64,000 nucleotides of DNA, taken from assembly GCA_963777505.1 (NCBI GenBank), contig CAVZQN010000004.1, forward strand, positions 928,001 to 992,000, given 5' to 3'. The notes beneath the pieces are model-generated. The model worked only from the letters and a program-made list of their open reading frames with translations, did no database searches and was not told the origin of the DNA. Source of the DNA: an uncultured bacterium. GTDB lineage: Bacteria; Acidobacteriota; HRBIN11; JAKEFK01. Below are positions 11,032 through 48,475 of this stretch, in pieces. The stretch's first letter is position 1, and each line of letters begins with the position of its first letter. The position numbers and the translations under genes were made by a program.

Positions 11032-11053
11032 CAGCTGGAGGTTCAGCCAGATT

Positions 11054-26081: not shown

Positions 26082-26159
26082 TTGCTCGTTTATTTTCTGC
26101 TTCCAATCCTTTCTGTATTTATGCTACAACTATCAGAAAGGCGGGAAGGAGCATGCTTT

Positions 26160-26855
26160 ATGGATTCCCGCACTCGCGGTTACTTACCTCATCTAGAAGT
26201 TTCCAAAGGAACGTATTTTCTTACCTTTCGATTAGACGATAGTCTTCCAATATCTTTACTTCAAAAATGGAAGGCCGAATTAATTTCTAAACAATCTCAT
26301 CAACAGCAGACTTACAGACCTGCAGATGAATATGAAAAAAAGATTCAATCATATTTAGACACCAATTCAGGAAATTGTTGGCTTCAAAATCCAGATATTG
26401 CTGATCTTGTTGCCAATGCCCTACGATACTTTGATGGCGCACGGTATGTTCTTCATGCTTGGACGATTATGCCAAATCACGTGCATGTCCTGTTTACTTT
26501 AATAGAACCGTATAAGCTGCCATCAATAATTCATAGTTGGAAAAGCTTTACTGCACATAAAGCCAATCATTTTCTGAAGCGAACGGGACGTTTCTGGCAA
26601 CCTGAATACTTCGATCGCTCCGTAAAGACTTCACGACAGTTTGAGTATTGCGTTCGATACATTCTTAACAATCCTGTCAAAGCAGGTTTATGTAACGAGT
26701 TTTATCAATGGCCCTGGTCAAAAACATCGATTGAATTGGAGGGTATGGTAAATCGATTTTTTAGATTCCAGGAAGGTGGAGAAGAGGGTGGGATCCTTGA
26801 TGCAGACGGGACGTCTGCGGTCCCTGATGCAGGCGAAGACGCCTGCGGTCCCTGA
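26160..26855 (+). mobile_element. REP-associated tyrosine transposase (RAYT, IS200/IS605 Y1 HUH family)
   Basis: RGYLPH, YFLTFRL, IMPNHVH (HUH), WKSFTA, FWQ.EYFDR, YILNNPVKAGL, WPWS; AAGGAG RBS; flanked by inverted REP clusters. Confidence 0.9.
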
Positions 26856-30816: not shown

Positions 30817-32196
30817 ATGAATCTTCATGTTTGTATTCTTGCTGCAGGTCAGAGCAAAAGAATGCAGTCAAAATTATCGAAGGTGCTGCATCCTTTATGT
30901 GGAAGACCGGTTCTTTTACATGTACTCAAGGCTGTTGAAGCGCTATCACCTTCAAGTGTCTCAGTTGTGCTGGGACATCAGCGTGATGAAATTCTGGAAA
31001 CACTTGGATCGAAACAGATTGATGTTGTCATTCAGCATGAGCAAAAAGGAACGGCACATGCTCTTCATGAATATTTGAATCAAAAGCCCGACATTACAGG
31101 TACACTTCTCGTTTTGAATGGTGATACGCCTCTTGTTACAACGGATCTTTTGCGCCATCTGGTTCAAGCGGCGCACGATCAGAATGCTTCTCTTGCATTT
31201 TTTACCGCTGAACTTCACGATCCTACTGGTTATGGAAGAGTTTTCAGAAAAGGAAACGCGGTTGAAAGAATCGTTGAAGATGCTGATGCAACCCCGGAAC
31301 AAAGAAAAATCCGGGAGATTAATGCAGGCATTTATTTGTTTAATATTGATTTACTGAGAGATTGGATCCCCCGAGTACAACCTTCCAATAAACAAAGAGA
31401 ATTGTATTTGACTGATGTGGTATCGCTTGCATTGGAAGACAAAAAGAATGTGATCGCAGTGCGAGGAAAGTCTGAGGAATTGATTGGAATCAATACTCGT
31501 GCTGAACTTGCACAAGCGGCCCGGGAAATGCGCCGGCGAATTAATCGTGAATGGATGTTAAAGGGCATTACGATGATTGATCCCGAGACAACTTACATCG
31601 ATGCCGATGTGCGTCTGGCTGCAGATACTGTGTTGTATCCAAATGTTTATTTGGAAGGGGAATGTATGATCGGTGGAAGTGTAACGATTTATCCGAATTG
31701 CAGAATTACAAATAGTTGGATAAACGTTGGATGCGTGATTTACGAAAATACTTCAATCGATTCATCGCATCTTGAAACTGGTGTGAAAATCGGACCTTTC
31801 GCACGCGTTCGACCGGATACTGTTCTTGGAGCCAACGTACGGATTGGAAATTTTGTGGAATTGAAAAAGACCTCCGTAGGCGATGGGACGAAAGCGAATC
31901 ACCTTTCTTACCTGGGTGATGCAGAGATCGGAAAGAATGTAAATATTGGCGCGGGTACGATCACATGTAATTATGACGGTGAAAAAAAGTATAAGACCAT
32001 CATTGAAGATGACGTTTTTGTCGGGAGTGATACTCAGTTAGTTGCGCCCGTCAGTATTGGAAAGGGTGCCTATATTGCAGCCGGTTCAAGCATCACAGAA
32101 GATGTCCCAGCCGAGTCTCTAGCCATTGCGCGATCCCGCCAAACAAACAAAGAAGGCTGGGCCAAGAAGAAATCAAAAATCAAAGATAAAAAATAA
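30817..32196 (+). CDS. glmU: Bifunctional UDP-GlcNAc pyrophosphorylase / glucosamine-1-P acetyltransferase
   Basis: ILAAGQSKRM.S...KVLH, GYGR, EINAG, YLTD, hexapeptide region with GNFVE.K, HLSYLGD, TCNYDG. Confidence 0.97.
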   Translation: MNLHVCILAAGQSKRMQSKLSKVLHPLCGRPVLLHVLKAVEALSPSSVSVVLGHQRDEILETLGSKQIDVVIQHEQKGTAHALHEYLNQKPDITGTLLVLNGDTPLVTTDLLRHLVQAAHDQNASLAFFTAELHDPTGYGRVFRKGNAVERIVEDADATPEQRKIREINAGIYLFNIDLLRDWIPRVQPSNKQRELYLTDVVSLALEDKKNVIAVRGKSEELIGINTRAELAQAAREMRRRINREWMLKGITMIDPETTYIDADVRLAADTVLYPNVYLEGECMIGGSVTIYPNCRITNSWINVGCVIYENTSIDSSHLETGVKIGPFARVRPDTVLGANVRIGNFVELKKTSVGDGTKANHLSYLGDAEIGKNVNIGAGTITCNYDGEKKYKTIIEDDVFVGSDTQLVAPVSIGKGAYIAAGSSITEDVPAESLAIARSRQTNKEGWAKKKSKIKDKK

Positions 32197-32211: not shown

Positions 32212-33597
32212 CTACGGACGCCACGTTTCACCCATACGCCAATCGATAATTTCCGTTCGTGCTTCAGAAATCGCAGGTTCAATACCGAGCGCTTGCAGCA
32301 TGCTTGATTCGTTCGAAGGAGCATTTCCAATCTCGCACCACAAATGTGAATAGGGAAGGAATGTTTTTGCTCCGGTAATTCTGCAAATCTCAGCGACACC
32401 GTCTGGCCCTAATGTAATCAGGTCAGATATTTGCGGGAATTTTGCAATTTGATCCGCGGTTAAGGAGAGCCAATAGAGTCCGTTGCCTGTAACGTAAAAT
32501 GGGTTTCCACAGCCAACGCCTACCTGGAATTCCTGTAAATTGCTTAACACCACATCCACTCTTCCATAGTGATGTTTTACGTATTCAGCAACCTGATTCA
32601 TCGAACCATTCGCATCTGATCCCGAATCAATCAAACAAAAAGCAGAAAAAAACGGCGTTCGGAAAAAATAAGAATTGCCCCAGTTTCTCAGGCGCTTATC
32701 GCGTGGATACTCATATCTCAATGGTTGTTCACCGTAAAATGGAAGCGCCGAAATTTCAATGTCATCAACGTATACAGGATCTGAATACCAATCAAGATCA
32801 ATAACATTTTTGAACCCCATGGCGCGAAGTTCTTTGGCGAAATCAGGACTCAGAATAGTTGCTTCATTTACACGAGGTACGATGATGAGGATGTCACGCG
32901 GGAGTGTTAGCAATGAAGGAATATGATAATGATCTCTATGGGAGTGAGTTATTAAAACGGCGTCAACTATTCCAATGAAATTTTGGGGCAACATCCGTGA
33001 AGTAGTTTGAAGATTAGAGCTATAGCCGGAAACAAAATGAGGATCAACGATAATCCGTGCCTTAAGAGTGTTAAGCAAGAATGAGGCGTGCTGTAATCGG
33101 ACGATTCCGACTTCTTGAGGCTGAAGTCTCCAATTCGTTTCAACAAGATCTTCGACAAATATTTCCGCATCGAAAAGCGCTTGAATCAGTTTTTGATAAG
33201 GACTCTTGCTGAACAGGTCAGTTCTTTGATTTGCTTTTTCCAGAAGAAGAATTGTTTCGCCAACTTCGAAAACCTCCTTGTCGGTAAGATGATTCAGAGA
33301 AACACATTTTCCTGAAAAATTATTGCGAAATACAAACGTGTCAATTCTGTTGTTCTTATCAAAAAGTAAGCAGGACTTAAGCCCGAAATCGGATGAAACG
33401 TTTTCAAAAGATTCGGCTGCTTCAGGGAAAGGTTTTGATGCAGCATCAACAGCAGCCTGGATTGATATTCCTGAACGGATGTCGCGGGCTACTTTCGAAA
33501 TAAATGGTCTTAACGATGCAATGAGCCGGTCTGAAATCTTTCTCTCAGCATGAATCGTTGCGTTTGTTGAAATCATACAGCACCTGAATGTAAGCAT
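32212..33597 (-). CDS. Metallo-beta-lactamase-fold protein, putative RiPP tailoring enzyme (possibly CmlA-like diiron hydroxylase)
   Basis: HAS.L.....IIVDP, LITHSHRDH (HxHxDH), LPFYGEQ, LIDSG, PYSH; ~160-aa N-terminal extension; divergent from the precursor gene. Confidence 0.75.
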   Translation of the reverse strand: MLTFRCCMISTNATIHAERKISDRLIASLRPFISKVARDIRSGISIQAAVDAASKPFPEAAESFENVSSDFGLKSCLLFDKNNRIDTFVFRNNFSGKCVSLNHLTDKEVFEVGETILLLEKANQRTDLFSKSPYQKLIQALFDAEIFVEDLVETNWRLQPQEVGIVRLQHASFLLNTLKARIIVDPHFVSGYSSNLQTTSRMLPQNFIGIVDAVLITHSHRDHYHIPSLLTLPRDILIIVPRVNEATILSPDFAKELRAMGFKNVIDLDWYSDPVYVDDIEISALPFYGEQPLRYEYPRDKRLRNWGNSYFFRTPFFSAFCLIDSGSDANGSMNQVAEYVKHHYGRVDVVLSNLQEFQVGVGCGNPFYVTGNGLYWLSLTADQIAKFPQISDLITLGPDGVAEICRITGAKTFLPYSHLWCEIGNAPSNESSMLQALGIEPAISEARTEIIDWRMGETWRP

Positions 33598-33619
33598 AAC
33601 CTGAAAGGCTCTTCAGGTT
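33598..33619. promoter_or_regulatory. Inverted repeat in the divergent MBL/precursor promoter region
   Basis: AACCTGAA-aggctc-TTCAGGTT; an extra half-site CACCTGAA at 33581-33588. Confidence 0.4.
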
Positions 33620-33678
33620 TGATTCAATTGGCATCTGCGATATGATGAACTTACCAAAACACCAGGAGGGGTTGAAGT

Positions 33679-34584
33679 ATGTCGGACCCTATTTCAAAAG
33701 GTGGATCCAAGCCACCATCTCAAGTCAACAAGCAAACCGAAATATCATCCACTCCGGAATCAACAGCGAAAGATTCCGCACAGATTCAAAAGAGTTCCAC
33801 TCCTCAAGAAACGCAAGATCCCAAGAAGTTAGCAAAGGCTAAAGGAGAACTCGCTTCGACCAAGAAATTTGATATGCAGCTGCAATCAATGAGTCAAAAA
33901 CTTGCGGCTGAACTTCCCAAAAAGGAAGCAACCGATCTAAGCTCATTGCCTGGACAAGTTCCAGGAAAGGTGTTGGACCAAAAGCTTGATGTCGCAGCGC
34001 CTGCATGTACAGGAACTTTGTTGTCCACATGCGGAGTGACTGATACGAAACCAACTGTATGCGATACGCTGTCAGGCTGTACAAAACCAACAACGGATCT
34101 GGGTTCAATCCCTGGCCGCACGCCTGGCACTATATTGGACCAAAAGCTTGATGTAGCAGCGCCAGCATGTACAGGAACTTTGTTGTCCACATGCGGAGTG
34201 ACTGATACGAAGCCAACTGTATGCGATACGCTGTCAGGCTGTACAAAACCAACAACGGATCTGGGTTCAATCCCTGGCCGCACGCCTGGCACTATATTGG
34301 ATCAAAAGCTTGATGTCGCAGCGCCAGCATGTACAGGAACTTTGTTGTCCACTTGCGGAGTGACTGATACGAAACCAACTGTATGCGATACGCTTTCAGG
34401 CTGCACAAAACCAACAACGGATCTGGGTTCAATCCCTGGCCGTACGCCTGGAACTATATTGGATCAAAAGCTTGATGTAGCAGCGCCAGCATGTACAGGA
34501 ACTTTGTTATCCACTTGTGGAGTGACTGATACAAAGCCGACAGTATGCGATACATTGTCAGGCTGCACCGGTTCTTTGAGGTAA
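33679..34584 (+). CDS. Putative multi-core lanthipeptide (RiPP) precursor: 84-aa N-terminal region plus four 54-aa repeats
   Basis: AGGAGG RBS; core ACTGTLLSTCGVTDTKPTVCDTLSGCT repeated four times; stop codon 21 nt from the stop of a lanthionine synthetase. Confidence 0.8.
   Translation: MSDPISKGGSKPPSQVNKQTEISSTPESTAKDSAQIQKSSTPQETQDPKKLAKAKGELASTKKFDMQLQSMSQKLAAELPKKEATDLSSLPGQVPGKVLDQKLDVAAPACTGTLLSTCGVTDTKPTVCDTLSGCTKPTTDLGSIPGRTPGTILDQKLDVAAPACTGTLLSTCGVTDTKPTVCDTLSGCTKPTTDLGSIPGRTPGTILDQKLDVAAPACTGTLLSTCGVTDTKPTVCDTLSGCTKPTTDLGSIPGRTPGTILDQKLDVAAPACTGTLLSTCGVTDTKPTVCDTLSGCTGSLR
33931..34569 (+). repeat. Coding tandem repeat, 162-bp period, four copies (last one truncated)
   Basis: The DQKLD codons recur at 33976, 34138, 34300 and 34462, exactly 162 bp apart. 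Confidence 0.97.
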
Positions 34585-34605
34585 TTTTGTCCGTGAATGG
34601 TGGCT

Positions 34606-37600
34606 TTATTCAAGCCACCATTCGATTTTTCCTTCCGATGCAACTTTGCAGACAAGACGTTTTTGATCCAGCACAACAATAATCACAACACGGTTATCGC
34701 TCTCTGTTCTGACAACTCGAATGCCAAGATCTGGTTCGTGAAAATCGAATGGTCCTTTCGGAACGATTTGCCAAACTATATCTACGACAGCACGTACAAG
34801 ACGATTTGGCTCCGCTTGATTTTCAACAACTGACCAAAATGGCGTGACGGTTTTTATTTCAGGAAAACTCCGCTCTAGAACTGGCCCACGATTTTGTTGA
34901 TCGATCCAGTAAATATTCCCATCTTCTCCGAGAATCCTAAAATAATACGGAATATCAAAACGATCGAGTTGTTTGATTTCGGAAGAGACAAGTGGCCGCG
35001 CTAGAAGAAAAGATTGGGTCATAGCGATTCCAGCAATAGGAAAGCCTCCGAGTTTTCGATCCAGCAGCGCAGCGAAATAACTTCGCGTAGGGTTGAGAAC
35101 AATCCGCATCGAAGCCCCTGTCAATTTTTCTTTCAGGTGATCCGCAATTTCTTTTGCATGAGCCTGGACCATCAACCATTGATCAGCGAAGCCACGCAAA
35201 ATTGTACAGACATGCTTTGTATATCCAAATGATCCATCCGAATTTTGCGCAAGATGCGGCCAGATCCAGTTGACTGCTTTCCAGGGTTTTGTAACAGGCT
35301 TAGGCCCATCCGATGTAATTTCAATTACCCAATCCTCAGAATTCAATCCACAATAAAGCGATGGTAAGGATAAAGGTGAGTGAGAATGAGGCACGACTTC
35401 GACACCCCAACGAGGTCCTTCAAGTAATTGCGTATCTTCCAGATCAATCACATTTCCAAACGCCATTTCTAAATCCACTGCATGAATTGAAATAAGAGGA
35501 GTGGATTGAGTGGTGCCGCTAACTACATTTTCTGAATGTAGATCAAATACTCCAAGACTAAAGGCATATCCCGCTAAGAGTCCTGCCGAATACCAGAATC
35601 GTTTTTCATCATGCTCTTTGAGCCGTGAAACTTGAGGCAGTGGAAAGTTGCCAGACTGTGAAAGCGGATTTAACTCGTCATCAAGTGGAAAAGTAACAAT
35701 GTCTGTGCTGTTTATTTGCTCCACATAACCATGTTTTGGACCAGCAACGATGATCCGATGTGTCGGTAACTGGGCGTTTGCAAAAGCAGGGCGAAGCCAC
35801 GCACGGCATTTTTCGGCAAGCGTCTCACCGTCATTACCAGCGGATGCGCCAGCTAACTCTCGATCGATCGCAACTGAGCGTCCTTTGTATAAAAATTGTG
35901 CTCCGTTTTCAAACAAAAGTGAGACGACACGATGCCCTCCAAAGTGTGGATCGCTTCCAAGCACTTGTATTCTGGTTAAGCGGCCTCCAATCTGTTGAGC
36001 AAGGACGCCTTGACGATCTGTCTCAAGCCGTTGAAACATGACTTCAAGTGCACTGATCGCCCCCGCAGTTAATTGCTTTGCAGCGCGTTTAACATTTGAA
36101 GCATTCCCTTCTGGATGCAAAACAATACCGGCAATCTCCCTAAGTACTCGTCCCATGATTGCAGGAGTCAATGCCTCTTTATTAACGAAACTTCCGTAAC
36201 GCTTGCTCCATTGGTGACATGATTTCTTTACTTCGTCCAGAGCTTGAAAATATGAATCCCCAGCAGGACAATTGGAAATTTGTTTCAGAATCGAATGCGC
36301 GTCATTCGGTTGCAGTTGGCCTACAACTAAAAAGTTTGCGTCGTTCTTAAATCGAATTCCGCCGGGTGGCAAAAGTTCAGCAGGAATTTGATATGACGAA
36401 AACTTTTTACCGGCTTTTTTGTTTAATCGTTTGGTCGATCTCAATAAAATTGGATCGCGATTCATTGTTAAGATTGGAAAAACAGGATAGCCGGATAATC
36501 TCAGCATTTGCCTGACGATTCCGCCTGTGCCCAGACCAAGTGAGGGGCCTCCACCTTCAGGCTTCAACGCATCTCGCCTGACTGCGGCGCGATTCTTCAT
36601 TCTGTTCGCGATGGACTGCGCACGTTTCGTCCAAATCTCGGAACCAGTTTCATCTGCCATATCTAAAAAGAGTTCAATCGCGCCTGTCAGGCCATGACAA
36701 TGACAAAATGGTTCATCATGATTGTCGGCCAGCGAATTCCATGTTGCATGAGCTGCAGATTCTGCAATTTCAAGCGCTGATGGATCCTTCAAAAGCCGAT
36801 GACGCGCTAGATATGCGTGACTGATTCCTGTGGAACCATGACACCAATGATCTTGAATCACACGATGTTCATCGCTGCGAGGCCATGCTGTTCCATTTCG
36901 GATACGAAATGATCTTGAATTCAACCAATCAAATGCTCCATCTAAAAGTGTTTTTGTAGCGGGATCTTTGGTTACGTGGAACAACTCAAGAAGAAACAAA
37001 CAGATTCCTGCAGCCCCATGGGCAAGGCCAGTGTGGGTCTGTGTCGCTAATTCACCATACGTTTGATCATTTGGAGGAAGCGGTTGTCTTCGATCTCGCA
37101 CAGGCCAGGCGAACATTCCACCAAAGTCGATTCGAGTCTCTTCAAGGAAAGAAGCTGCCTTCTTCGCATGTTCAAGAAACGATGCATCATGAGTTGCATA
37201 ATATAGTGCCAGAAATAGCCATCCTGTTCCCGCAGCACCTCTAAAGAGATCAGTATCTACGTGAGAAGTTTGTGAGAGAAGATTTCCGGCATGAATGGCA
37301 TAATCTAAATATCGTTGATCTTTAAGAACCCTCGCACAGGCAAGATGGAAAAGACCAACTCCTGCAAAACCGCTGTACAGGCCGTTAGCAATCGAGTCGG
37401 ATTCAGGAGTGCTTATCACCAACCCATAGGAAATTTCCTCAACTGTCTTTGCATAGCGAGAATCTCCGGTTGCACTGTAAAGATCCAATAACACGATTCC
37501 AATTCCAGCAGAGCCATCATATAACTTGAATTCATACCTTCCTTCAGTTCCAGTCTTTAGATCAGCAGGAAATCGAAGTCCCAGCGTAGTCGCGGTTCTT

Positions 37601-37680
37601 CGTTTCAGAATTTCGTCGCCTCCTTGAAGCGCCATCTTAAAATATGAATTTGTATTCTTCTGTTTTTTCTTGATACGCAT
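34606..37680 (-). CDS. Lanthionine synthetase with inverted architecture: N-terminal LanC cyclase plus C-terminal LanM-type (DUF4135) dehydratase
   Basis: N-half: YDGSAG, LYSGFAG, DLFRGAAG, GLAHGAAG, WCHG, CHG (LanC GxxG repeats and Zn ligands). C-half: SDPH..G, LYKGR, GYVE, DLHSEN, VDLE, RIVLNPT..Y, E..QL...DIPYY (LanM dehydratase motifs). Confidence 0.88.
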   Translation of the reverse strand: MRIKKKQKNTNSYFKMALQGGDEILKRRTATTLGLRFPADLKTGTEGRYEFKLYDGSAGIGIVLLDLYSATGDSRYAKTVEEISYGLVISTPESDSIANGLYSGFAGVGLFHLACARVLKDQRYLDYAIHAGNLLSQTSHVDTDLFRGAAGTGWLFLALYYATHDASFLEHAKKAASFLEETRIDFGGMFAWPVRDRRQPLPPNDQTYGELATQTHTGLAHGAAGICLFLLELFHVTKDPATKTLLDGAFDWLNSRSFRIRNGTAWPRSDEHRVIQDHWCHGSTGISHAYLARHRLLKDPSALEIAESAAHATWNSLADNHDEPFCHCHGLTGAIELFLDMADETGSEIWTKRAQSIANRMKNRAAVRRDALKPEGGGPSLGLGTGGIVRQMLRLSGYPVFPILTMNRDPILLRSTKRLNKKAGKKFSSYQIPAELLPPGGIRFKNDANFLVVGQLQPNDAHSILKQISNCPAGDSYFQALDEVKKSCHQWSKRYGSFVNKEALTPAIMGRVLREIAGIVLHPEGNASNVKRAAKQLTAGAISALEVMFQRLETDRQGVLAQQIGGRLTRIQVLGSDPHFGGHRVVSLLFENGAQFLYKGRSVAIDRELAGASAGNDGETLAEKCRAWLRPAFANAQLPTHRIIVAGPKHGYVEQINSTDIVTFPLDDELNPLSQSGNFPLPQVSRLKEHDEKRFWYSAGLLAGYAFSLGVFDLHSENVVSGTTQSTPLISIHAVDLEMAFGNVIDLEDTQLLEGPRWGVEVVPHSHSPLSLPSLYCGLNSEDWVIEITSDGPKPVTKPWKAVNWIWPHLAQNSDGSFGYTKHVCTILRGFADQWLMVQAHAKEIADHLKEKLTGASMRIVLNPTRSYFAALLDRKLGGFPIAGIAMTQSFLLARPLVSSEIKQLDRFDIPYYFRILGEDGNIYWIDQQNRGPVLERSFPEIKTVTPFWSVVENQAEPNRLVRAVVDIVWQIVPKGPFDFHEPDLGIRVVRTESDNRVVIIVVLDQKRLVCKVASEGKIEWWLE

Positions 37681-37778
37681 AAGACAATCCGAAATGAGGA
37701 TTATAATTGGTTTTGTTCCTGAACTGCGGATTCTAACCGGTGAAGGCTATTTACCGGTTATATTGTGTCATTGATTCT

Positions 37779-38363
37779 ATGAAAATATTTAACCACCAGC
37801 TCCCACTTGATTTGTGCAAGAACATTTGTGATTTTGCATTGAACCAGATCCTGAATGTTGATTTCAAAAAGGCTCCGGTAACAATGTGGACTAATTTTGG
37901 ATGGCCTCAGCACATTGTCAAAGACAGTACGGCCGTATTGATCTTTCTTACTCCGCGGCAATTTCTAGAAGAGATTCAAAGCTGTCTCGAAGAATTAGCA
38001 ATTTTTAATGCAGAGGTCGATTTACCTTTTATCAATGAAAGTAATCCTGATTTGTGTTCTCTTTGTTTGACTTACGTGTGGACTCGAAATTCGTACATCC
38101 CGGTTCATCGTGATGGAAAGCATAGAAAAACCGTGACTATTTATTGCAATGAGAAGTGGACTCCTGAGATGGGTGGAGTCTTACAATGGTTCGATTCTGA
38201 AAAGAATGCATGGGATGAGGTTGTCCCATCCTGCGGAACTATTGTGTTCAATGATAAAGATGAAGCACATGCTACAACTCCTGTGCTCGCTCACAATGAT
38301 TTCAGGATCAGTCTTCAAATTTTTATATTGTCTTCAGGGCAGGCGGGGTCTATTCAATATTGA
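37779..38363 (+). CDS. 2OG-Fe(II) oxygenase (prolyl 4-hydroxylase-like)
   Basis: IPVHRD (HxD), W....GG.L, distal H in EAHATTPV, RIS 2OG-binding motif. Start may instead be GTG at 37740. Confidence 0.8.
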   Translation: MKIFNHQLPLDLCKNICDFALNQILNVDFKKAPVTMWTNFGWPQHIVKDSTAVLIFLTPRQFLEEIQSCLEELAIFNAEVDLPFINESNPDLCSLCLTYVWTRNSYIPVHRDGKHRKTVTIYCNEKWTPEMGGVLQWFDSEKNAWDEVVPSCGTIVFNDKDEAHATTPVLAHNDFRISLQIFILSSGQAGSIQY

Positions 38364-38369
38364 GCAGCA

Positions 38370-39026
38370 TCATTTCCAGTTTGGCCCTTCCATCCATGCA
38401 ACAAGAGAGTGCCTCGTCCCTTTTGTTACAGGCGTGACTTCATGTTCAAGAAATGAAGGAAAGATAATTGCAGCGAGGAATTCCCTTCTTTGTTGAATGT
38501 TCTTCGAATAATTTGCCTGGTTGAGAATCAAGTCATTTTTATCGCCAAACAGGAGCAAATCTCCGCCTTCATAATTTTCGGGAGGAGTGAGTTGTATTGT
38601 AAGAGACAGTTTGCGCTGAGTATCAATCCATCCTGTCAAGCATGTATCAATATGAGATTTGTAAAATTGGCCGCTCTCATCGTTCACTCCAGCAGTGTAC
38701 TCCGCTAACTGGATCGTTTGGATTGTATCAATCGCAAAATGATATTTTTGTGAATTGATAGCGTTGAGTAATGCCGAAATTTTATCGTATATCCAGGATG
38801 TATCTTCGGAACGATTCACCCAGCAAACTGTATTATTTCTAATATACTCAGGGCGCGGTTGATCGTTTTGTTGATCGCTAACTTTAGTGCCCGCTCTGCG
38901 TAATTTTCCGGACTCCTTTTCGCCTGTCTGAAAATACTGCAATAAACGATCCCGTTCTTCAATTGTGAGAAATTGGAGTACGACTACAGGATTGATGTCG
39001 AAAAGTTCATGTTTTTCAGAAGTCAC
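38370..39026 (-). CDS. 2OG-Fe(II) oxygenase (PKHD/YbiX-like)
   Basis: FYKSHID (HxD), RKLSLTIQL, YEGGDL, IFPSFLEHEVTPVTKGTRHSLVAW. Confidence 0.88.
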   Translation of the reverse strand: MTSEKHELFDINPVVVLQFLTIEERDRLLQYFQTGEKESGKLRRAGTKVSDQQNDQPRPEYIRNNTVCWVNRSEDTSWIYDKISALLNAINSQKYHFAIDTIQTIQLAEYTAGVNDESGQFYKSHIDTCLTGWIDTQRKLSLTIQLTPPENYEGGDLLLFGDKNDLILNQANYSKNIQQRREFLAAIIFPSFLEHEVTPVTKGTRHSLVAWMEGPNWK

Positions 39027-39038
39027 GCTATTGAAATT

Positions 39039-39422
39039 TCAGTTCTTTTTAGGAGTCTTGAAAAATTTGTTCAATTCCCATTTTCGGTAGAGACCGCGGA
39101 AGGCAAAACCGGCGCTTTTTGATGTTGACTTTGGGTGGTCCAATGGTCGTTGAAATAAACCTTTGACTACCATCGTAACGCTATTATCTGCTACCACGCT
39201 GGCCGGGTTACTTCGAACAACCAGATTCTGAGATTCAAAATCGCCCAACTCTACTGTTACACCATTTACCGTAATAGAAAGGCTGCCATTTGCTTCACTG
39301 AGGAATAGAATATCGTCTTCATGAGCATCGAGTAAAATTGCGCCATTTTCAATCCGCAATTCTGAACCCGATCCGATAACGCCTCCGGGAAATTCGTTAT
39401 CCGGATCTGATTTCAATTTCAT
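39039..39422 (-). CDS. Hypothetical protein (beta-rich, ~127 aa)
   Basis: ATG at 39422 with GGGAGG RBS; ends 12 nt before the oxygenase start, so probably co-transcribed with it. Confidence 0.5.
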   Translation of the reverse strand: MKLKSDPDNEFPGGVIGSGSELRIENGAILLDAHEDDILFLSEANGSLSITVNGVTVELGDFESQNLVVRSNPASVVADNSVTMVVKGLFQRPLDHPKSTSKSAGFAFRGLYRKWELNKFFKTPKKN

Positions 39423-39548
39423 TCGATGATCGCCCTCCCGCTCTCGTCGGTCTAAGGATATCATAAGCCTACTGAACGCTGAGTTTCAGTCGATGATTAG
39501 GGCAATGATGTTTGTTTGAGGGGGACGGATCACGTAAGAAAAATAAAG

Positions 39549-39575
39549 GGAGATTCACAATTAGTGAATCTCCCA
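39549..39575 (-). terminator. Rho-independent terminator of the 39603-40013 gene
   Basis: gggagattcac-aatta-gtgaatctccc, an 11-bp stem followed on the minus strand by a U-rich tract. Confidence 0.8.
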
Positions 39576-39602
39576 TGACTTCTTGACTAAGCCACCAAGT
39601 GT

Positions 39603-40013
39603 TTATTGCTTGTTTTCAGGCGGAGTCGCATCATCAGGAGGTGTTATTTCCATTTTCGTTACAAGGTTCTGAGAATCTACTTCCAATGAAACCTTGTCGC
39701 CTTTTTGTAGTTGGTCTACAGTAATCGACTGTCCTGCCTTGTTGAAAGTTGTTGTCTCGTTGAACTCGAGATCCTGGGTTGTTCTTGAACGCTCATCTTT
39801 CAGCGTAATTGTCTTCTTTACAAGATCAATCTTTTGAATGACGCCGGTGAGCTGCTGGTTTTGGCTTGTTGGAGCCTGTAGCTGATCCTGAGGCATCATC
39901 TGCTGCTGCTCTTCAGGTTTTTGCTGATCTTCAGGTCTCTGTTGATCTGTCTGTGCGAACGCAAATGCGGAGCATACAAACAGAAATAAAAAAGCAAATA
40001 AAGTTTTGTTCAT
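39603..40013 (-). CDS. Small secreted protein with an OB-fold-like (DUF5666/CusF-like) domain
   Basis: Signal peptide AFA, Gln-rich linker, G.I.KID....ITL...T.F......I....L.KGDKV.L. Confidence 0.6.
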   Translation of the reverse strand: MNKTLFAFLFLFVCSAFAFAQTDQQRPEDQQKPEEQQQMMPQDQLQAPTSQNQQLTGVIQKIDLVKKTITLKDERSRTTQDLEFNETTTFNKAGQSITVDQLQKGDKVSLEVDSQNLVTKMEITPPDDATPPENKQ

Positions 40014-40184
40014 AGTTACCTCCAGTGGAAATTAACTCAGGAGGTTCACCATGGACGCCACTATTAAAGTTAGGTTTGAACTCCGTATATTCAACCTGTC
40101 ATCAATACTTTGTTGCTCGTTCCCACTTGAAGCAGAGAGCGTTAAAATGTGCAATGAAAGGTTAGGTTGCATCAAGGAGGAGGA

Positions 40185-40706
40185 ATGAAATCTGCTATTG
40201 GGTTCATTGCGGTTCTGCTGCTGATTGGATGTTCATCCAAACATCCGAACATTTCCGAATTTCCCGCACCAGTCACTCTTACCAAAGATGTATGCAGCCG
40301 CGAACCGGAGCTTTGCGAAAAATCTTGCGCAGATTGTAAAGATCGCAAAGATTGCATGTTGAATAACGGAGTGTGCAAAACAGGCGGACTACACTTTAAT
40401 GACTCCGGAGATACGGGTAACGATATCTGGACACCCGGATGTCATTACGAATATAAAGATGCTGCTTGCGCGCAAAACCAGAATTTTTTTCTGGGTGATA
40501 TCTGCGGGACGAAAAATCCTAAGGAAATCATCGAGTGGACTGTTTCGGCTTGCCATGGTGCGATCGGAGATCGGGAAATATTTGACTGTGATAAAGAATG
40601 CAAGCGTGCGGATCTAGGAAGGGGTACATGCGTCGTTGTACCAAATGTCTGCGCAGGAAAGGACAGTGCTGCGTGCAAATGTGATAAGCCGTTACCGACT
40701 CCGTAA
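40185..40706 (+). CDS. Cysteine-rich lipoprotein
   Basis: AGGAGG RBS, lipobox LLIG-C, 16 further Cys; C-terminal CxxxC...GxC...CxC. Confidence 0.7.
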   Translation: MKSAIGFIAVLLLIGCSSKHPNISEFPAPVTLTKDVCSREPELCEKSCADCKDRKDCMLNNGVCKTGGLHFNDSGDTGNDIWTPGCHYEYKDAACAQNQNFFLGDICGTKNPKEIIEWTVSACHGAIGDREIFDCDKECKRADLGRGTCVVVPNVCAGKDSAACKCDKPLPTP

Positions 40707-40729
40707 TTAATTAATGCAGCTTTCTGGGA

Positions 40730-40771
40730 GACGTTTCATAACGTGAAACATGTTTCACAACATGAAACGTC
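40730..40771. promoter_or_regulatory. 42-bp near-perfect palindrome with two GTTTCA-N5-TGAAAC sites
   Basis: gacgtttcat-aac-gtgaaacatgtttcac-aac-atgaaacgtc, upstream of the 40873 gene. Confidence 0.55.
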
Positions 40772-40872
40772 TTGCACCAACTAAAGTTAGGTCTAAAACC
40801 CTGTCCATGGGACCAGCCTGCTTCTTGTTCGTGCCTCGATAATGAGAAGTGTTGAATTTCTTTGGAGGTAAC

Positions 40873-41778
40873 ATGAACAAGGTTGGATCAACGTCATCAA
40901 GTCCTTATACAGGTCAGATTCCAGGTGCCGAAACAAACGAGAAAATCAAAAGCCCGGCGCAATCACCCGCTGAATCTCCAATAACGCTAGATAAGAGCGT
41001 CAAACAAGAAGCTAAAACACGCGAAAGTGATTCTGATTTGCAGGCATCAGTTCGGAAAGAAACTTTGTTTGCTCAAGTAGATAAGCCCAAAACCGGAGGC
41101 GCAAGCGAAGCAAAATTCGTTGAAAGAAACTTAAAGAGCGATGCAGAGGTTAGAAAATTTGCCACTGAAAAAGCTTTTCCCGCAATTATGAAAGGGCTGG
41201 AGAAATCAGGTTTAGGAACCACCGAAGAAACCTGTAATCTTGCAGCAGGAATGCTCATGACGGCATTGAAAAAACAAGGAATCGAAGGAGCAAAGATCCG
41301 TTTCACAGCCAATCATGCATTCGTTGAAGTTCCTACAAAAAAGGGAACATTGATTCTCGATCCGACTGCAGGTCAGTTTTTTAAAGAAGGAAGTGAAATC
41401 AAATCAAAATTGAAAGCAGAAGGTTTTGTTGGAACGAAAGAAGAATTAAAAAAGACGATCCGTGAAAATATTATGGATTGGAAACATGAGTCGAATTTAG
41501 AGTTCCATCCAAACGTAGTAAAAGTAATTCAGGGAGAACGAATGGATAAGGAAAGTACCAGGGTTGCGGAAGCGCAAATCGACGACTTAGCTCATGTTGC
41601 TGAATTACGATATTTTTCAGGAGTAGATTATAGCGGCCCCGGTGATGACGCGATCAAGCAACACGAATGGTATGAAAAGGGCGACTTGGATCAGCCTTTC
41701 ATTAATAAGCTCAAGTCCGACATGGGCCCAACATTAAAGACCGCATATGAAACGATGGAGAAGGAACTGCTGAAATAA
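40873..41778 (+). CDS. Papain/transglutaminase-like Cys-His-Asp protein with disordered N-terminus
   Basis: ETCNLAA (Cys at helix start), NHAFVEV (His), LILDPTAGQF (Asp); GGAGG RBS before ATG 40873. Confidence 0.6.
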   Translation: MNKVGSTSSSPYTGQIPGAETNEKIKSPAQSPAESPITLDKSVKQEAKTRESDSDLQASVRKETLFAQVDKPKTGGASEAKFVERNLKSDAEVRKFATEKAFPAIMKGLEKSGLGTTEETCNLAAGMLMTALKKQGIEGAKIRFTANHAFVEVPTKKGTLILDPTAGQFFKEGSEIKSKLKAEGFVGTKEELKKTIRENIMDWKHESNLEFHPNVVKVIQGERMDKESTRVAEAQIDDLAHVAELRYFSGVDYSGPGDDAIKQHEWYEKGDLDQPFINKLKSDMGPTLKTAYETMEKELLK

Positions 41779-41845: not shown

Positions 41846-43675
41846 ATGTGTGGAATCGTCGGGTATATCGGGAAGAAGGAAGTTGTTCCAGTTTTAATCG
41901 ATAGCTTAAAGCGATTGGAATATCGCGGCTACGATTCAGCAGGTATTGCTGTAGTAAATGATGGCGAATTGGTTATTCGCCGTGCCGCTGGCAAACTTAC
42001 CAATCTTGAAGATGTCTTAAAGACGAATCCCGTGCGTGGTCTATACGGAATTGGACATACGCGCTGGGCTACACATGGGCGTCCAACCGAAGAGAATGCC
42101 CATCCTCATCGTGATTGTAAGAATCGCATCGTCGTTGTTCATAACGGCATCATTGAAAATTATCTTGAGTTGAAGCATGCGCTGATAAAAGATGGCCATC
42201 GTTTTGTAACTGAAACCGATACGGAAATCGTCGCGCATTTAATCGAAAAATATTACGAAGGCAATTTACAAAAAGCAGTTTTGAAAGCGTTTGCGGAAAT
42301 TCGTGGCGTTTATGCGATCGTGGCTTTAAGTGTCGATGAGCCCAACATGATTATTGGAGTGCGGAATGGCCCTCCACTCGTAATTGGAATTGGAAAGGAT
42401 GAATATTTTATTGCGAGTGATGTTTCTGCGCTATTGCAGCATACGCGGGAATTTATTTTCCTGGACAATCAGGAAATGGCAATCATTAGTCCGGAAGGTT
42501 CACGCATCGTATCGCTCAATGGTGAGGCCGTGAACCGTGAACCGCACCAGGTTAATTGGGATCCTGTTCAAGCTGAAAAAGGTGGATATAAACATTACAT
42601 GCTCAAAGAAATTTTTGAGCAGCCCCGCGCGATTCGTGAAACAATTGTCGATCGATTTTCACTCGAATCAGGCAAAATTCATCTGAATGGATTTCAATTC
42701 AGTGAAGCAGATCTTGCTGCAGTCCAAAAAATTAATCTAATCGCTGCCGGAACTTCATGGCATGCGGCACTTGTTGGTAAATTCTTACTGGAAGAACTGA
42801 CGCGTATTCCTACTGAAGTCGATATCTCTTCCGAATTTCGATATCGCAAGCCAATCATTCAACCCGGAACGCTTACAGTTGCAATTACTCAATCTGGTGA
42901 AACGGCAGATACGATTGCTGCGATTCGTGAAGCAAAAAAACTTGGCTCATTAACTTTGTCGATTACGAATGTTGCAGAAAGTATGATTGTTCGCGAAACG
43001 CAAGGTGCTTTGCTGACTCATGCCGGACCCGAAATCGGAGTTGCATCTACAAAAGCATTCACAACTCAACTCACTGCATTTTATCTTTTGGCACTCTATT
43101 TGGCTGAGCTGCGGAATACTTTGAGTGTGCAAGAACGGGTTGAAAGAATCCAGGGTCTGACAACGATTGCGAATCTTGTTGAAGCAATTTTGGAAAGACA
43201 CGAATCGCTTGAAGAAATTGCAAAGAAATATCACAACTGCACCGATTTCCTTTATCTTGGACGCGGCCTGAATTATCCAATCGCATTGGAAGGCGCTCTC
43301 AAACTGAAAGAAATTTCATATATCCATGCGGAAGGATATCCAGCCGGTGAAATGAAACATGGTCCTATTGCATTGATCGATGAGAAAATGCCTGTTGTGG
43401 CATTAATGCCGAAAGACAGACATTTTGAAAAAATCTGCAGCAATGTAAATGAAGCGCGTTCGCGTGAAGGGAAAATAATAGCCATTGCAACTGAAGGTGA
43501 AGAAAGTGTCCGTGATATCGCTCATGATGTTTTCTTTATTCCTGATACGGATCCGCTTCTGACTCCAATTTTGACTGTCATTCCTCTCCAACTCCTTGCG
43601 TATTACATTGCAATCCGCCGCGGTTGCGATGTGGATCAACCACGCAATTTGGCGAAGTCCGTAACTGTCGAGTAA
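41846..43675 (+). CDS. glmS: Glutamine--fructose-6-phosphate aminotransferase
   Basis: MCGIVG, LEYRGYDSAG, GHTRWATHG, QSGETAD, C-terminal PRNLAKSVTVE. Confidence 0.98.
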   Translation: MCGIVGYIGKKEVVPVLIDSLKRLEYRGYDSAGIAVVNDGELVIRRAAGKLTNLEDVLKTNPVRGLYGIGHTRWATHGRPTEENAHPHRDCKNRIVVVHNGIIENYLELKHALIKDGHRFVTETDTEIVAHLIEKYYEGNLQKAVLKAFAEIRGVYAIVALSVDEPNMIIGVRNGPPLVIGIGKDEYFIASDVSALLQHTREFIFLDNQEMAIISPEGSRIVSLNGEAVNREPHQVNWDPVQAEKGGYKHYMLKEIFEQPRAIRETIVDRFSLESGKIHLNGFQFSEADLAAVQKINLIAAGTSWHAALVGKFLLEELTRIPTEVDISSEFRYRKPIIQPGTLTVAITQSGETADTIAAIREAKKLGSLTLSITNVAESMIVRETQGALLTHAGPEIGVASTKAFTTQLTAFYLLALYLAELRNTLSVQERVERIQGLTTIANLVEAILERHESLEEIAKKYHNCTDFLYLGRGLNYPIALEGALKLKEISYIHAEGYPAGEMKHGPIALIDEKMPVVALMPKDRHFEKICSNVNEARSREGKIIAIATEGEESVRDIAHDVFFIPDTDPLLTPILTVIPLQLLAYYIAIRRGCDVDQPRNLAKSVTVE

Positions 43676-43740: not shown

Positions 43741-46700
43741 CTACTCAGTTACTCGGATTTCTTCGATGGTTGCGGTTGTTTGCACAACTTTGAAACTAAC
43801 ATTGGATGAGGCCGGCACGGGTCCGGCGGGGACAGTCATTATTACCTGTCCGTTTACTGAAATCACAAACGCGGTGCCATCGTATTGGAGGCCGACTGTA
43901 TAAGTGACTCCGGGATCAAGCTGGAATGGTGCGGATTTCTTGGCCACGAGTACTCCGCCGGATCTTTGCCTGAACATCACCTTGTTAAGTCGTTCCCTAA
44001 GAATCAGCGAAACGCCATTCTGTTTGTCCTGTCTCCAATCCAAAATGATTTTGTCGAATATGCCGCCGGATGACTGGAGATCTACTTCAACGGTGCACGT
44101 GCTGCAGCCGAACACTCCTGATGGACTCCATGGTAGGGGCGCGAAGACCTGCGCCCTGCTGGAGCCGGTGCAAACAAGCGCGCCGGAATTTTCCTGGCAC
44201 GAACCTTTAACGACGTCCCAATCCATTACACCATCTTCGAAGTCATCGAAAAGCAGGTATGGAATAGTTTCAAACTCGGCCGTGACTGTTGTATCGGAGC
44301 TTAAGGTCACATTGCAGATTTCGTTGTTGGCTCCCGATGTGGAATCGCATCCGGTCCAACCATCAAAAAAGGAGTTGCTATCCGGTGATGCGGTAATCGC
44401 GAAGACTGTGCCGCTGTCTGCCTGTTGACTGCAATCTCCTGATTCTGTACCAGCGGTACTGCTACAGTTGATCGTTCCGCCTGGTGTTGTGTCCACCATC
44501 GTTCCGTTTCCGGTGCCTGTGCCGGCCGTTGTGAGAATCGGGTGTAGGGTGAAGGTAGCCGTTATGGTAAGGCTGCTCTGATTCACGGCAATGTTGCATG
44601 TGTCATTTGTTATATTTGTAGTACTAAGCAGAATCGCAGCCGGTCCATCCGCCGAATTCGAAGCCGAGATCAGGTGTGGCAACGACGGCGTAGTTGGCGC
44701 TGATAGCAGTGGTTTCGGTACAGTCGTTGGATGTGATTCCTCCGGTGCTGGTGCAGTTGATCGTGCCGCCGGGTGTGGTGTCCGTCATGGTTCCGTTGCC
44801 TGCGCCGGCTCCGGCGACTGTGAGAACGGATGGAGGAGTTGTGTCGATCGTGAAAGACCACACGGTAGACCACGCGCTGAAGGCGCCCGCTGCGAACGCG
44901 CGCACGCGCCAGAAGTATGTGTTATCAGCAAGCGCGCTTCCAGGCGTGAATGTGGAGACAGCAACGTTGGTATCGATTTCCGGACTGGAGAAATCGTTGT
45001 TGTTATCTACCTGGATCTGGTATTGCGTTGCACCACCGCCGCCGGTGGAATCAGTCCAATCAAATGTCGGAGTTGAATCGTTTATTGTTGCGCCATTTGC
45101 GGGAGAAAGCAGGACCGGCACGGAAGGCGGCGCTTGAATCGTGACGAGGTCCGCGCGATCACCGGACTGGTTATAGTGATGGAGCATCAGGATATCAGCA
45201 TTCCCATCCGGCTCGCCGGAAAGATTGAAAATCCAATCGAAAGCGGTTGCGTTAAGGTCATCCACGATCGGGATCATCCGTCCGGCAACGCCGAAGAACC
45301 CCTCATTCGGGGAAAATTTTGAATTGGTCGGATCAAAGGTCAACAACGGTGTCGTATCCGTGAATACAGTCGGAGGATTCGCCAGGGGATCGTTAAAATC
45401 AAATGTCATTAGCTTGAAATCGAAAGCCTGACCAGGATCTGTTGTATTTCCGCCTGTGTATTTTACGGTCCCAGCTCCTATTAGAGTATTCCAATAGGCC
45501 GGCGTGGTTCCTGAAGCCAGGAACATCACGTTGTTGTTGAAGATGTTGGTATCCATAACAGATGGATTGATCTGCTGATACTCGGTTATGCTGAATTCTG
45601 CACCTGCCCCGGAGCCAAGAAAATTGTTGATGTCCCGGAGAAAAACCATGAAAGTATCGCGGGAGCTGGATCCGCTAACGTTCGGTCTTGCTACCATGCA
45701 CCAATCAGTGCCGTCTCCAAACGCGCCGCCGGTTCCGTCCTGATTCAGATCGAGGCATAGCCACACATGTCGCATCGCGGGTGTATCCCAGTTTCCATAC
45801 ATGGAGAGACCGAAATACGTGCGGGTGCCCCCGACCGGGACATCGCTGCTGACTCCGACATACTGTATATCACCGCCATCCCATGCGTCAGGTCCGGGAT
45901 TCACTTCTGGACTTGTGTGCAAAAGCTCATACGCGCTGACGCGGCTGCGATACGTAGTTGTGCCCGCGCCCTGGTTCACCTGAACGCCAGTGAGTGGAAT
46001 GCTGACAACTCCCGTGGACGCGCCAGTATTCACTTGTGTTGGGGAATCCATATCAGACGCCGGGCGCGGCGCAGAATAAAGTGGAACTCGTAAATCTACA
46101 GTTGCTCCGGACACAGCATCGAGTACCGCATATCCCGTTTCTTCGGTGATCCAATGACGGAAAAAGGTATCTTGCTGGGTGGCGCTATTCACATCCATGA
46201 CATGGGTCATTGCGGATGGTGTGAAAGTAGTCGTCACGGTAAAAGTATTCGTGCTCATTGCGCCCACAGTAACGGAGCTGGGACTTACACTGAAAGCAAC
46301 ACCAGTGGCATCGTTGACCGTGTCGATAGAGAGGTTATACGTCACCGAAGTCCCTGTATTGTTTTCGACCGTGATGGTTTTATTTTCTGTTTGGGGACCT
46401 GCGTTGTTCAGAAAGAGATCTCCGGCGAATGTAACTCCCACAGCTGCCGGATTATCAGTGCCGTACGCGATGACTTCTTCAGTTGTTGCGTTTTCGACAT
46501 CGACTCTGCCTGCTCCGATACGGCTCGTTCCAAACCGTGCTATCAATCCGCCCGTGACAGTGCTCAACGAAAACACGTCATGTGTTGCGGTGCTCATCAC
46601 CAGGGCTTTCAGGTCCTCAACAGACCATGTGGGATATTGTTCGCGTAGTAATGCCATAACTCCTGCTACATGCGGTGAAGCCATGGACGTTCCGCTATTG

Positions 46701-48475
46701 AAAGCGCCTTCATTTCCAGCACAGGTACCTGTGTAACAGGTGCGCGTTGAAAGGATATTGGATCCGGGAGCAGTAATATCGGGCTTTAGCAGCAATTCTC
46801 CGGTAAGATTTCTGCGGCGAGGTCCGCGGGACGAGAAGGCTGCAAGAATGTCCGCGGAGTTTCCTCCGTTTTCAATAAGTTGGCCTTTTGCAGTGCCGAT
46901 GAAAGGATTGATTGCAGTGCCTGAGTCCAATGCAATCATTACAACCGGAATCGTGACCGGGTCTACAGCACCGTCGTCCGCCAACGATACGGGATTATTA
47001 TCGGTGTTCACGATCACCACGGCAGTTGCGCCGGCTGTCTGGGCGTTGAAAGCTTTTAGTTTTCCGCTGCAGGTGCCCCTGTTTATGAAAGCGACATTCC
47101 CTGCAGTAAACGTTGCAAAGTCTATAGCGTTGCAACCAAGTACGTTGGTTGGCTTCTGAAGCAGTGTAAGCGCTGGCGGAGCCGTTCCTGGAATCGCAGG
47201 AGAATAATTTGACTGATGCAAAGCATAGTACCTGTTATCCACAACGTTATCTGCATTCGTGTCAACATCCAGCGCGTTGTTCAACAATCCGCTGTCCAAT
47301 GATGCGGCAACGCTGATCGATTCTGTGACGGAGCCCGGCGTGCCGGTAATGTAGTGAGTGTCGCCGGAGTTGCCGGCCGAAGTTACTACGATTACACCCA
47401 CAGCCACAGCATTGGGGATCGCTGTTTCATATCCCGCAAAGCCATAGCTTGAACCAAGTGACATATTGATCACATCGTAGTGATCGCTGAAATCATCATC
47501 GCCATTCGGGTCCACGGCACGGTCGATTGCCTGGAGAACGAGATTGGTCGATCCTGAACAACCGAAGACTTTCAGAGCTACGATCGAAGCCTCCGGCGCA
47601 ACACCCGGACCGATCTCGAAGCCGGCAAGAGTGGCTGGAGTGAGATTATCGTAGCCGCCAGTGTAGGTGACGCCCCCATCCACGCCGGTGCCGGCAGCGG
47701 ATCCTGCGACGTGTGATCCGTGACCGTTGCAATCGGTGGGATCCGAATCCGGAACCGGAATATTAGAGCCATTATAGCTGTCACCTGCGAAATCAAATCC
47801 ATCAATTACTTTTGCTGTGGGAAATGTAATGCCATCAGAGTTGATCACATTAGGATCTTGTCCGGTGTAATTCACAGTACCTGCGAAATTTGCATGTACA
47901 TAATCGACGCCGGTATCGATCACTGCGATTGTAATTCCATTGCCTGTGAGCCCAAGTGTCGAAAGAGTCCCGGTTGAGTCCCACACCGTGTTCGCGCCGA
48001 TAAAAGGGACGCTCGTGGAATTCTCGATATAGTGTACGGGGGCAAGGCTGACCTTTTTGACGCCTGGCAGTTTCTGAAGCTCGCGAACTTTGCTCGCGTC
48101 CACTCTGATTACGATCGCATTCAGCACGCGCTGCACTGCATATAACTCGACTGCTCCAAGTTTCGTAAAGTTCTTCCGCAGCGCATCCTGCTGAGTGCGA
48201 ATCTCTTGCATCGATTTTGCAACAGCGGTGGCAGCGGCCGCCCTCCGCGCTCCATTGCGCATCTTCTCGGCGTAAACTTGTGCCGCCGGCTTCCCCTGAA
48301 GCTCGACTAGCAGTGTCAAGTTGCCGTCCGGCGCGTTTGGCGGAACTTCCGGTTTCCCTAGCTTTACGTCTTCCGACGCGTCGTTGCGCAACTTGATGTC
48401 CTCTTGTGCAAAGCAGAGAAACGGCGCAATGATAACCAAAACAAAACAAATCAGGCGTACTTGAATTTGAAACAT
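43741..48475 (-). CDS. Large secreted S8 subtilase (I9 propeptide, PA domain, Fn3/Ig-like and repeated beta domains), split by an apparent +1 frameshift at ~44629
   Basis: VIDTG, GHGSHVAG, SAGNSG and GTSMASPHVAG catalytic motifs; PA domain (RGTC...KAFNAQ.AGA). Removing one base after GWTGCDS reads on into ORF 43741..44682 (LSTTNITNDTC). Confidence 0.85.

Follow-up and report, generated by a model that had tools for sequence, protein, structure and literature searches.

Lanthipeptides have been much mined as natural products, and their synthetases are used in peptide engineering. The described enzymes closest to the one considered here are the LanM synthetases, in which the dehydratase comes first and the cyclase last. 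Precursors that carry several core peptides are known among other peptides that are ribosomally made and modified after translation (RiPPs), including the cyanobactins, the microviridins, and plant and fungal RiPPs, and CinX, a 2-oxoglutarate/iron(II) (2OG-Fe(II)) hydroxylase, reportedly tailors cinnamycin. A July 2026 paper describes multi-core precursors as unreported for lanthipeptides. Two further articles present CmlA and FrsH as beta-hydroxylases with a non-haem diiron centre, whose substrates are amino acids tethered to non-ribosomal peptide synthetases (NRPSs) (PMC7794379, PMC7785958). Here we examine a 64,000-nucleotide stretch of contig CAVZQN010000004.1 (positions 928,001 to 992,000 of the forward strand, assembly GCA_963777505.1; hereafter the window) from an uncultured member of the Acidobacteriota, in which neighbouring genes probably form a lanthipeptide-type RiPP cluster comprising a multi-core precursor, a synthetase of reversed domain order and three metalloenzymes.

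An initial annotation of the same DNA had proposed a lanthipeptide system of undescribed combination, with a four-repeat precursor rich in Cys, Ser and Thr, an inverted fusion of LanC with a LanM-type dehydratase, and two 2OG-Fe(II) oxygenases on opposite strands. Each of these elements was borne out by the present analysis. The catalytic residues of the synthetase are intact, its linkage to a precursor is kept among relatives, and both the multi-core precursor and the oxygenases recur in the two closest loci, designated L001 and L011. The features that carry the assignment are listed below by window position.

32212..33597, minus strand: metallo-beta-lactamase (MBL)-fold protein of 461 aa, CmlA/FrsH-like and a putative diiron oxygenase by profile and fold match
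33679-34584, plus strand: precursor gene, 301 aa
33679..33930, plus strand: N-terminal leader region of the precursor (aa 1-84), hydrophilic and Cys-free, from the translation and homology to L001 and L011
33931-34092, 34093-34254, 34255-34416 and 34417-34581, plus strand: four tandem 54-aa units of the precursor, each with four Cys
34606-37680, minus strand: synthetase gene, 1024 aa, LANC_like followed by DUF4135
36496..37533, minus strand: LanC-like cyclase domain, synthetase aa 50-395 (PF05147, E=2.4e-47)
34609..36393, minus strand: LanM-type dehydratase domain (DUF4135, kinase-like), synthetase aa 430-1024 (PF13575, E=4.8e-22)
37740..38363, plus strand: 2OG-Fe(II) oxygenase A, 207 aa, prolyl-hydroxylase-like superfamily (PF13640, E=2.1e-7)
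38370..39026, minus strand: 2OG-Fe(II) oxygenase B, 218 aa, PKHD-type hydroxylase-like (PF13640, E=1.9e-13)

Domain order, catalytic residues and relatives of the synthetase

Pfam places LANC_like at aa 50-395 of the synthetase and matches DUF4135 from ~aa 531 onwards, an order that departs from the dehydratase-first, cyclase-last arrangement of LanM. The LanM model TIGR03897 gives the same picture, with profile positions 592-930 of 932, which constitute its LanC part, matching synthetase aa 50-396. Because the C-terminal positions of the model fall on this N-terminal segment, the predicted domain order is cyclase N-terminal and dehydratase C-terminal, the reverse of LanM. A description of a reversed LanM was not found in the open-access literature by searches for exact phrases, and subscription papers or supplements may hold one.

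Catalytic residues were compared in two alignments, one of 12 members of the synthetase family (A1) and the other of the C-terminal domain of seven sequences with 25-52% identity to the window (A2). The LanC motifs H221, C280 (WCHG) and C328-H329 (CHG) are invariant in A1 and align to their LicM2 counterparts; LanC residues of the C280, C328 and H329 type are zinc ligands. Compared with CylM (5dzt), the A2 profile produced a match of E=6.1e-9 in three collinear pieces. In this match D577/H579 align with D252/H254 of the CylM P-loop (phosphate elimination), K599 with K274 (phosphorylation), D713/H715/N718 with D347/H349/N352 (phosphorylation), and R859/T865 with R506/T512 (phosphate elimination). 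Eight residues (D577, H579, K599, D713, N718, D736, R859 and T865) are invariant in A2, and position H715 varies (DLNQEN in L002, DQHAEN in L003). According to the CylM study, mutants at these residues lose phosphorylation or phosphate elimination (PMC4550811). On its residues for phosphorylation, elimination and LanC activity, the synthetase is predicted to be catalytically complete. An AlphaFold model of the whole enzyme was confident for the LanC half alone, which Foldseek matched to LanCL2, CuvL, NisC and LicM2; the match spans ~420-450 columns of the LanC domain only and says nothing on the fold of the dehydratase or the placement of the domains.

Searching a 5.8-billion-sequence index recovered 13 proteins that match the synthetase, one of them assigned by name to an Acidobacteriota metagenome-assembled genome (MAG). 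A hidden Markov model (HMM) built from A2 and run over 1.84 billion representatives gave 58 matches below 1e-30, 12 of which are full-length (1003-1061 aa, with the dehydratase domain starting at aa 405-475). LANC_like comes first in all four of the other reversed-family members tested, and the place of the match points to the same order in the 12 full-length proteins. Within the window's own phylum the domain was found at E<=1e-20 in two of 401 genomes, namely the window genome, where it is single-copy, and one genome of the same genus. By these counts the predicted reversed synthetase is a rare family.

Relationships among DUF4135 domains were examined in an unrooted tree without outgroup (MAFFT with a quick IQ-TREE search), which used 57 of 112 rows. 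From each group the first 16 names were kept whose rows reached a minimum of 380 aa, or 480 aa in the 'alone' group. A fully supported branch (100%) separates the reversed family from the 15 sampled canonical LanMs, which are those among the best 150 matches of A2 only. The reversed family's side of this branch also holds DUF4135-DUF6624 fusions and stand-alone DUF4135 proteins, and HMM E-value tiers agree with the tree. One row labelled canonical by its length, P0046, is actually DUF4135+DUF6624. A FastTree analysis based on hmmalign was set aside, the canonical LanMs having filled just 21-25% of its columns. Since the DUF4135 lineage of its dehydratase is distinct from that of the canonical LanMs sampled, a separate fusion of LanC with a divergent dehydratase, rather than a permutation of lanM, is the probable origin of the reversed enzyme.

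Outside the reversed family, the dehydratase has its nearest relatives among proteins of ~720-860 aa with DUF4135 N-terminal and DUF6624 C-terminal (five of five tested: P0035, P0038, P0042, P0046 and P0057), a type represented by ~29 alignment rows. There are also stand-alone DUF4135 forms, ~570 aa long. In DUF6624, a LanM-type dehydratase could have a partner domain other than LanC.

The multi-core precursor and its recurrence in related loci

The precursor has no family in Pfam or NCBIfam. Its four units (aa 85-138, 139-192, 193-246 and 247-301) follow a Cys-free N-terminal region, and Tandem Repeats Finder reports a 162-bp unit at 33973-34565 in 3.7 copies with 95% matches. Every unit consists of a spacer closing with LDQKLDVAAP and a core opening with ACTGTLLSTC, the core being ~30 aa long with four Cys and 12 Ser/Thr. 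The four units agree in every residue of a 37-aa segment that runs from LDQK to the fourth Cys plus Thr. The DNA that encodes it has 15 variable columns (14 at codon position 3 and one at position 1) with zero amino-acid changes; between units 1 and 4 there are 14 differences in 111 nt. Because all 15 variable columns are synonymous, this pattern shows purifying selection on the core peptide, beyond mere recent duplication. By tblastn, the leader shows homology to the N-terminal stretches of the precursors in L001 and L011, and the whole has the make-up of a lanthipeptide precursor (LanA), with a leader and a Ser/Thr/Cys-rich core encoded beside a synthetase.

Twelve relative loci were compared with the window, four from genomes (L001-L004; uncultured bacterium, Thermodesulfovibrio and Gemmatimonadota) and eight from metagenomes (L011-L018). 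Four of the latter (L012, L013, L014 and L017) are near-identical, which leaves about eight independent clusters. A gene for a peptide rich in Cys and Ser/Thr adjoins the synthetase gene in 11 of the 12 loci, and in the twelfth, L018, a contig end leaves the last 19 residues of a candidate peptide. The linkage spans at least three phyla, as named in record titles or by a source. Synthetase homologues never lying near Cys/Thr-rich open reading frames (ORFs) had been named in the initial annotation as an outcome that would count against its proposal, and these neighbourhoods display the opposite.

The two closest loci share the multi-core layout. L001, whose synthetase is 67% identical to that of the window, encodes a 333-aa precursor with five units and three core variants, while L011 (50% identical) encodes a precursor of at least 227 aa with three units. 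In all three precursors the motif [LI][DQ]QKxx[VA]A[AE]P is followed by AC[TS]GT..STC, and the cores vary both between precursors and within them. Core residue 2 is a Cys in every one of the 12 units that the three precursors contain (PAC[TS]GT; window 34003-34008 and the equivalent place in each unit). The L001 synthetase (9959-13040, the same as G041:C4), which is the copy from the same-genus genome, is split by one TGA or frameshift into two ORFs in a long-contig MAG.

More distant clusters resemble ordinary class II systems with GG-type leaders, and L013 combines a GG leader with a C39-peptidase/ABC-type exporter and a HlyD-like protein. Further small genes with the common leader 'MARIKIKDLP...GG' and unrelated cores are present in L013 (9659-18102), L002 (3813-12258) and L014. 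Genes resembling B12/radical-SAM enzymes and YcaO adjoin such leader genes in the distant clusters, where several modification systems appear to share a single type of leader.

Based on these comparisons, we propose that the precursor is composed of a leader of ~84-98 aa and four units, the shared motif acting as a putative recognition or cleavage sequence for each core. The C-terminal DUF4135 domain would phosphorylate Ser and Thr residues of the core with ATP and eliminate the phosphate to give dehydroalanine or dehydrobutyrine, to which the N-terminal zinc LanC domain would add Cys thiols, forming (methyl)lanthionine rings, at most four in a core and 16 in a precursor. The two 2OG-Fe(II) oxygenases and the CmlA/FrsH-like diiron oxygenase would hydroxylate side chains of the peptide, with the conserved Asp-Thr, Pro residues and Leu-Leu as candidate sites. 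We infer four rings per core and the liberation of four core copies, the latter likely by a protease encoded elsewhere.

The best surviving alternative, which we nevertheless consider unlikely, is that the 301-aa product is modified and left uncut, yielding a single large protein that would bear as many as 16 thioether rings and might serve, for instance, as a stapled repeat protein of a secreted or structural kind. Such a product would be in keeping with the absence of protease and exporter genes from the cluster in the window, L001 and L011, with spacers that are conserved along with the cores, and with the length of the precursors (301, 333 and at least 227 aa). It would leave unaccounted for the same short motif before each core, which is also a feature of known multi-core RiPP precursors, and the pairing of distant family members with short GG-leader peptides and a nearby exporter-peptidase. 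The precursor also lacks an evident signal peptide, as judged by reading its sequence. Cleavage into separate cores is the reading that we prefer.

Putative tailoring enzymes and points against the assignment

The two 2OG-Fe(II) oxygenases score above the PF13640 cut-off of 27 bits, at 32.2 bits (A) and 51.6 bits (B). Orthologues of oxygenase A are found in L001 (68%) and L011 (61%), as are those of oxygenase B (72% and 58%), and each of these loci has a third 2OG oxygenase paralogue. In the PDB, oxygenase B matches the PKHD-type hydroxylase 3dkq (E=2.8e-5), and oxygenase A has a weak match to 4iw3 (E=0.31).

The third metalloenzyme consists of an N-terminal domain of ~165 aa and an MBL domain (Lactamase_B_3, E=1.5e-6). 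In the PDB a profile of 37 homologues (A3) matched CmlA (4jo0, E=1.1e-22) and 8a90 (E=2.4e-21) ahead of NAPE-PLD (E=3.4e-11). With the AlphaFold2 model (pLDDT 92.1), the first five Foldseek matches are FrsH and CmlA (E 7e-19 to 7e-18, TMq 0.56-0.60), and matches to generic MBL hydrolases begin at 1.8e-11. Other CmlA-like homologues, 33-43% identical, occur in cyanobacteria and myxobacteria. Eight residues are invariant in A3 (H170, D185, H218, H220, D222, H223, E290 and D324). Among them H218/H220/D222/H223, E290 and D324 align with the HNHQDH, GEH and ADS stretches of CmlA, which we take to contain its iron-binding residues. CmlA_N occurs in 92% of the members of one neighbour cluster in the Atlas. 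L001 has two copies of a CmlA-like gene, and the L011 contig ends at the expected place of this gene. A Pfam scan of 27 ORFs of the window found no NRPS domain; it did not extend to the remainder of the genome.

The MBL-fold gene and fold given in the initial annotation stand, with one correction: by profile and modelled fold the protein is best matched by the diiron beta-hydroxylases CmlA and FrsH, not by a hydrolase. A hydrolase, such as a peptidase excising the cores, is improbable. Pfam and NCBIfam do show generic MBL hydrolase families only, homologues are named 'MBL fold metallo-hydrolase' or 'UlaG' in their sources, and the cluster contains no other protease candidate; however, CmlA and FrsH lead any hydrolase by 7 to 11 orders of magnitude in both profile and fold, and the fold match covers both domains. 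The invariant E290 (FYGEQP) also aligns with the Glu of CmlA LPFLGEH, presumably the iron ligand E377 (PDB entry 5kil is titled 'E377D mutant').

Very unlikely is a decaying or silent cluster whose reversed enzyme is no working lanthionine synthetase (one, for example, that phosphorylates only, or whose LanC adds a small thiol), for although an internal stop or frameshift breaks the same-genus copy and the synthetase scores under the LanM cut-off, all window genes are intact, the phosphorylation and elimination residues and zinc motifs are invariant down to 25-29% identity, purifying selection on the precursor core is clear, and the linkage to Cys-rich peptides is kept across at least three phyla.

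Several points weigh against the assignment as a lanthipeptide cluster. The TIGR03897 score of the synthetase is 193.5 bits versus the NCBI cut-off of 304, and phmmer, run on the PDB with the C-terminal domain as a single sequence, found no LanM and a chance beta-lactamase at E=1.6. The AlphaFold model of the whole synthetase, made from a 12-row alignment, has a mean pLDDT of 61.2, with most of aa 598-952 below 50, and D736 is paired with CylM D364 through the VDLE motif, which falls outside the printed alignment. In the same-genus genome the synthetase gene is interrupted by an in-frame TGA or a frameshift, which may reflect gene decay or an error of assembly. No core contains a Ser or Thr upstream of its first Cys, which leaves this Cys without an evident ring partner. 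No RNA run containing the locus was listed among the sequencing runs, and two runs contained 0.05-0.06 of its sequence words. The restricted sampling of canonical LanMs in the quick tree and the want of a protease or exporter gene in the clusters of the window, L001 and L011, both described above, count on the same side.

Genomic setting and comparison with known systems

Nine tightly spaced ORFs fill the interval between glmU (30817-32196) and glmS (41846-43675). The cluster proper, at 32212-39464, probably forms a compact lanthipeptide-type RiPP island inside this variable gap. Strands alternate over 33597-39464 (-, +, -, +, -, -) with gaps of 6-81 bp, and the convergent arrangement of precursor and synthetase and the divergent arrangement of synthetase and oxygenase are kept in L001 and L011. 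The remaining features of the interval are the following.

33619..33646, plus strand: weak promoter-like site 5' of the precursor gene (9/12 consensus match)
34594..34624, plus strand: terminator-like hairpin with a 13-bp stem and T-run, directly 3' of the precursor stop and overlapping the 3' end of the synthetase gene
39039..39464, minus strand: 141-aa protein without a family, probable cluster member with an orthologue in L001
39603..41778: three more genes, for a 136-aa exported, a 179-aa Cys-rich lipoprotein-like and a 309-aa protein, probably neighbours, unconserved with the cluster

Across the region the counts of promoter-like and terminator-like sites are no higher than in shuffled sequence, and the promoter-like site is suggestive by its position alone. 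The 141-aa gene lies 12 bp from oxygenase B on the same strand, and a 127-aa orthologue, 65% identical, is located inside the L001 cluster. Its product has no Pfam or NCBIfam family and gave no usable match in an ESM Atlas search; we regard the gene as a probable member of the cluster.

The initial annotation had also counted small exported proteins and a Cys-His-Asp enzyme among the cluster genes. The ORFs exist as described (39603-40013, 136-aa exported; 40167-40706, plus strand, 179-aa lipoprotein-like; 40849-41778, 309 aa), whereas their membership did not hold. None of the three had a tblastn match in the 12 relative loci, the related clusters L001 and L011 included, or in L032 and L033 from two relatives' genomes. 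Without a counterpart in L001 or L011 they were rejected as cluster members, and they are probably neighbours outside it. The Cys-His-Asp assignment of the 309-aa protein is weakly supported, by a papain-like toxin fold match (E=0.007) of 16.9 bits, below the Pfam cut-off of 26.1. The 179-aa protein has many Cys and belongs to no Pfam or NCBIfam family.

In a genome of the same family 2.3 kb separates glmU from glmS, and the genes in between (L033, 11709-13928, G108) are unrelated: one for a 271-aa protein and small ones that look toxin-antitoxin-like by eye. In the same-genus genome the cluster is at a different place, beside truB, lgt and rluD. The variable glmU-glmS gap and this second location mark the cluster as an island at a variable site, and its patchy distribution suggests horizontal transfer. 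An IS200-like Y1 transposase domain (PF01797, E=6.9e-10) is encoded at 26082-26855 on the plus strand, ~5 kb upstream of the island. A secreted S8 subtilase of 1283 aa with a PA domain is encoded at 44624-48475 on the minus strand, 2.8 kb past 41778, in a stretch with a GC content of 0.52-0.54 compared with ~0.43. Lanthipeptide leader proteases are often S8 enzymes. This subtilase was rejected as a dedicated protease on the grounds that it sits past glmS in the higher-GC stretch.

We further propose, tentatively and with less assurance than the cluster assignment itself, that the locus unites a LanC fused ahead of a divergent DUF4135 lineage, motif-guided poly-core processing and a CmlA/FrsH-type hydroxylase acting on a ribosomal peptide. 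If true, the product would be the first multi-core lanthipeptide, and the CmlA/FrsH family would gain a ribosomal-peptide substrate class beyond NRPS-tethered substrates, and with it a new tool for beta-hydroxylation. The swapped catalytic domains would offer a test of how leader binding and the hand-over between dehydratase and cyclase depend on their arrangement, and the motif before each core a route to several ring peptides from one translation product. The source belongs to little-studied, mostly uncultured lineages, with its nearest named homologues coming from Acidobacteriota MAGs.

Compared with LanM (CylM, 5dzt; LicM2, 6st5), the synthetase likewise joins a DUF4135 dehydratase and a zinc LanC in one polypeptide, keeps the P-loop D/H, catalytic K, D-x-H-x-x-N, elimination R/T, WCHG and CHG motifs, and is encoded beside a precursor rich in Cys and Ser/Thr. 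It differs in its N-terminal LanC and a TIGR03897 score below the cut-off, in a dehydratase that groups with DUF4135-DUF6624 proteins across a fully supported branch, and in the multi-core precursor of the window's subclade. As in multi-core RiPPs of other classes, a short conserved recognition or cleavage stretch precedes each core and the number of units differs among relatives (three, four and five), whereas the chemistry proposed here is that of lanthionines.

The MBL-fold protein shares with CmlA and FrsH (4jo0, 5kik, 8a90) the MBL fold and an extra N-terminal domain, with HxHxDH, a Glu and an Asp conserved as candidate metal ligands. Unlike known members, whose substrates are held on NRPS carrier domains, it is encoded in a putative RiPP cluster; its N-terminal domain is shorter, Pfam CmlA_N was undetected, and identity in the fold alignment is 13-15%. 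Like the cinnamycin system with its CinX, the predicted lanthipeptide cluster contains 2OG-Fe(II) oxygenases and its cores have a conserved Asp, but the enzymes of the window are PKHD- and prolyl-hydroxylase-like and number two here and three in each of L001 and L011.

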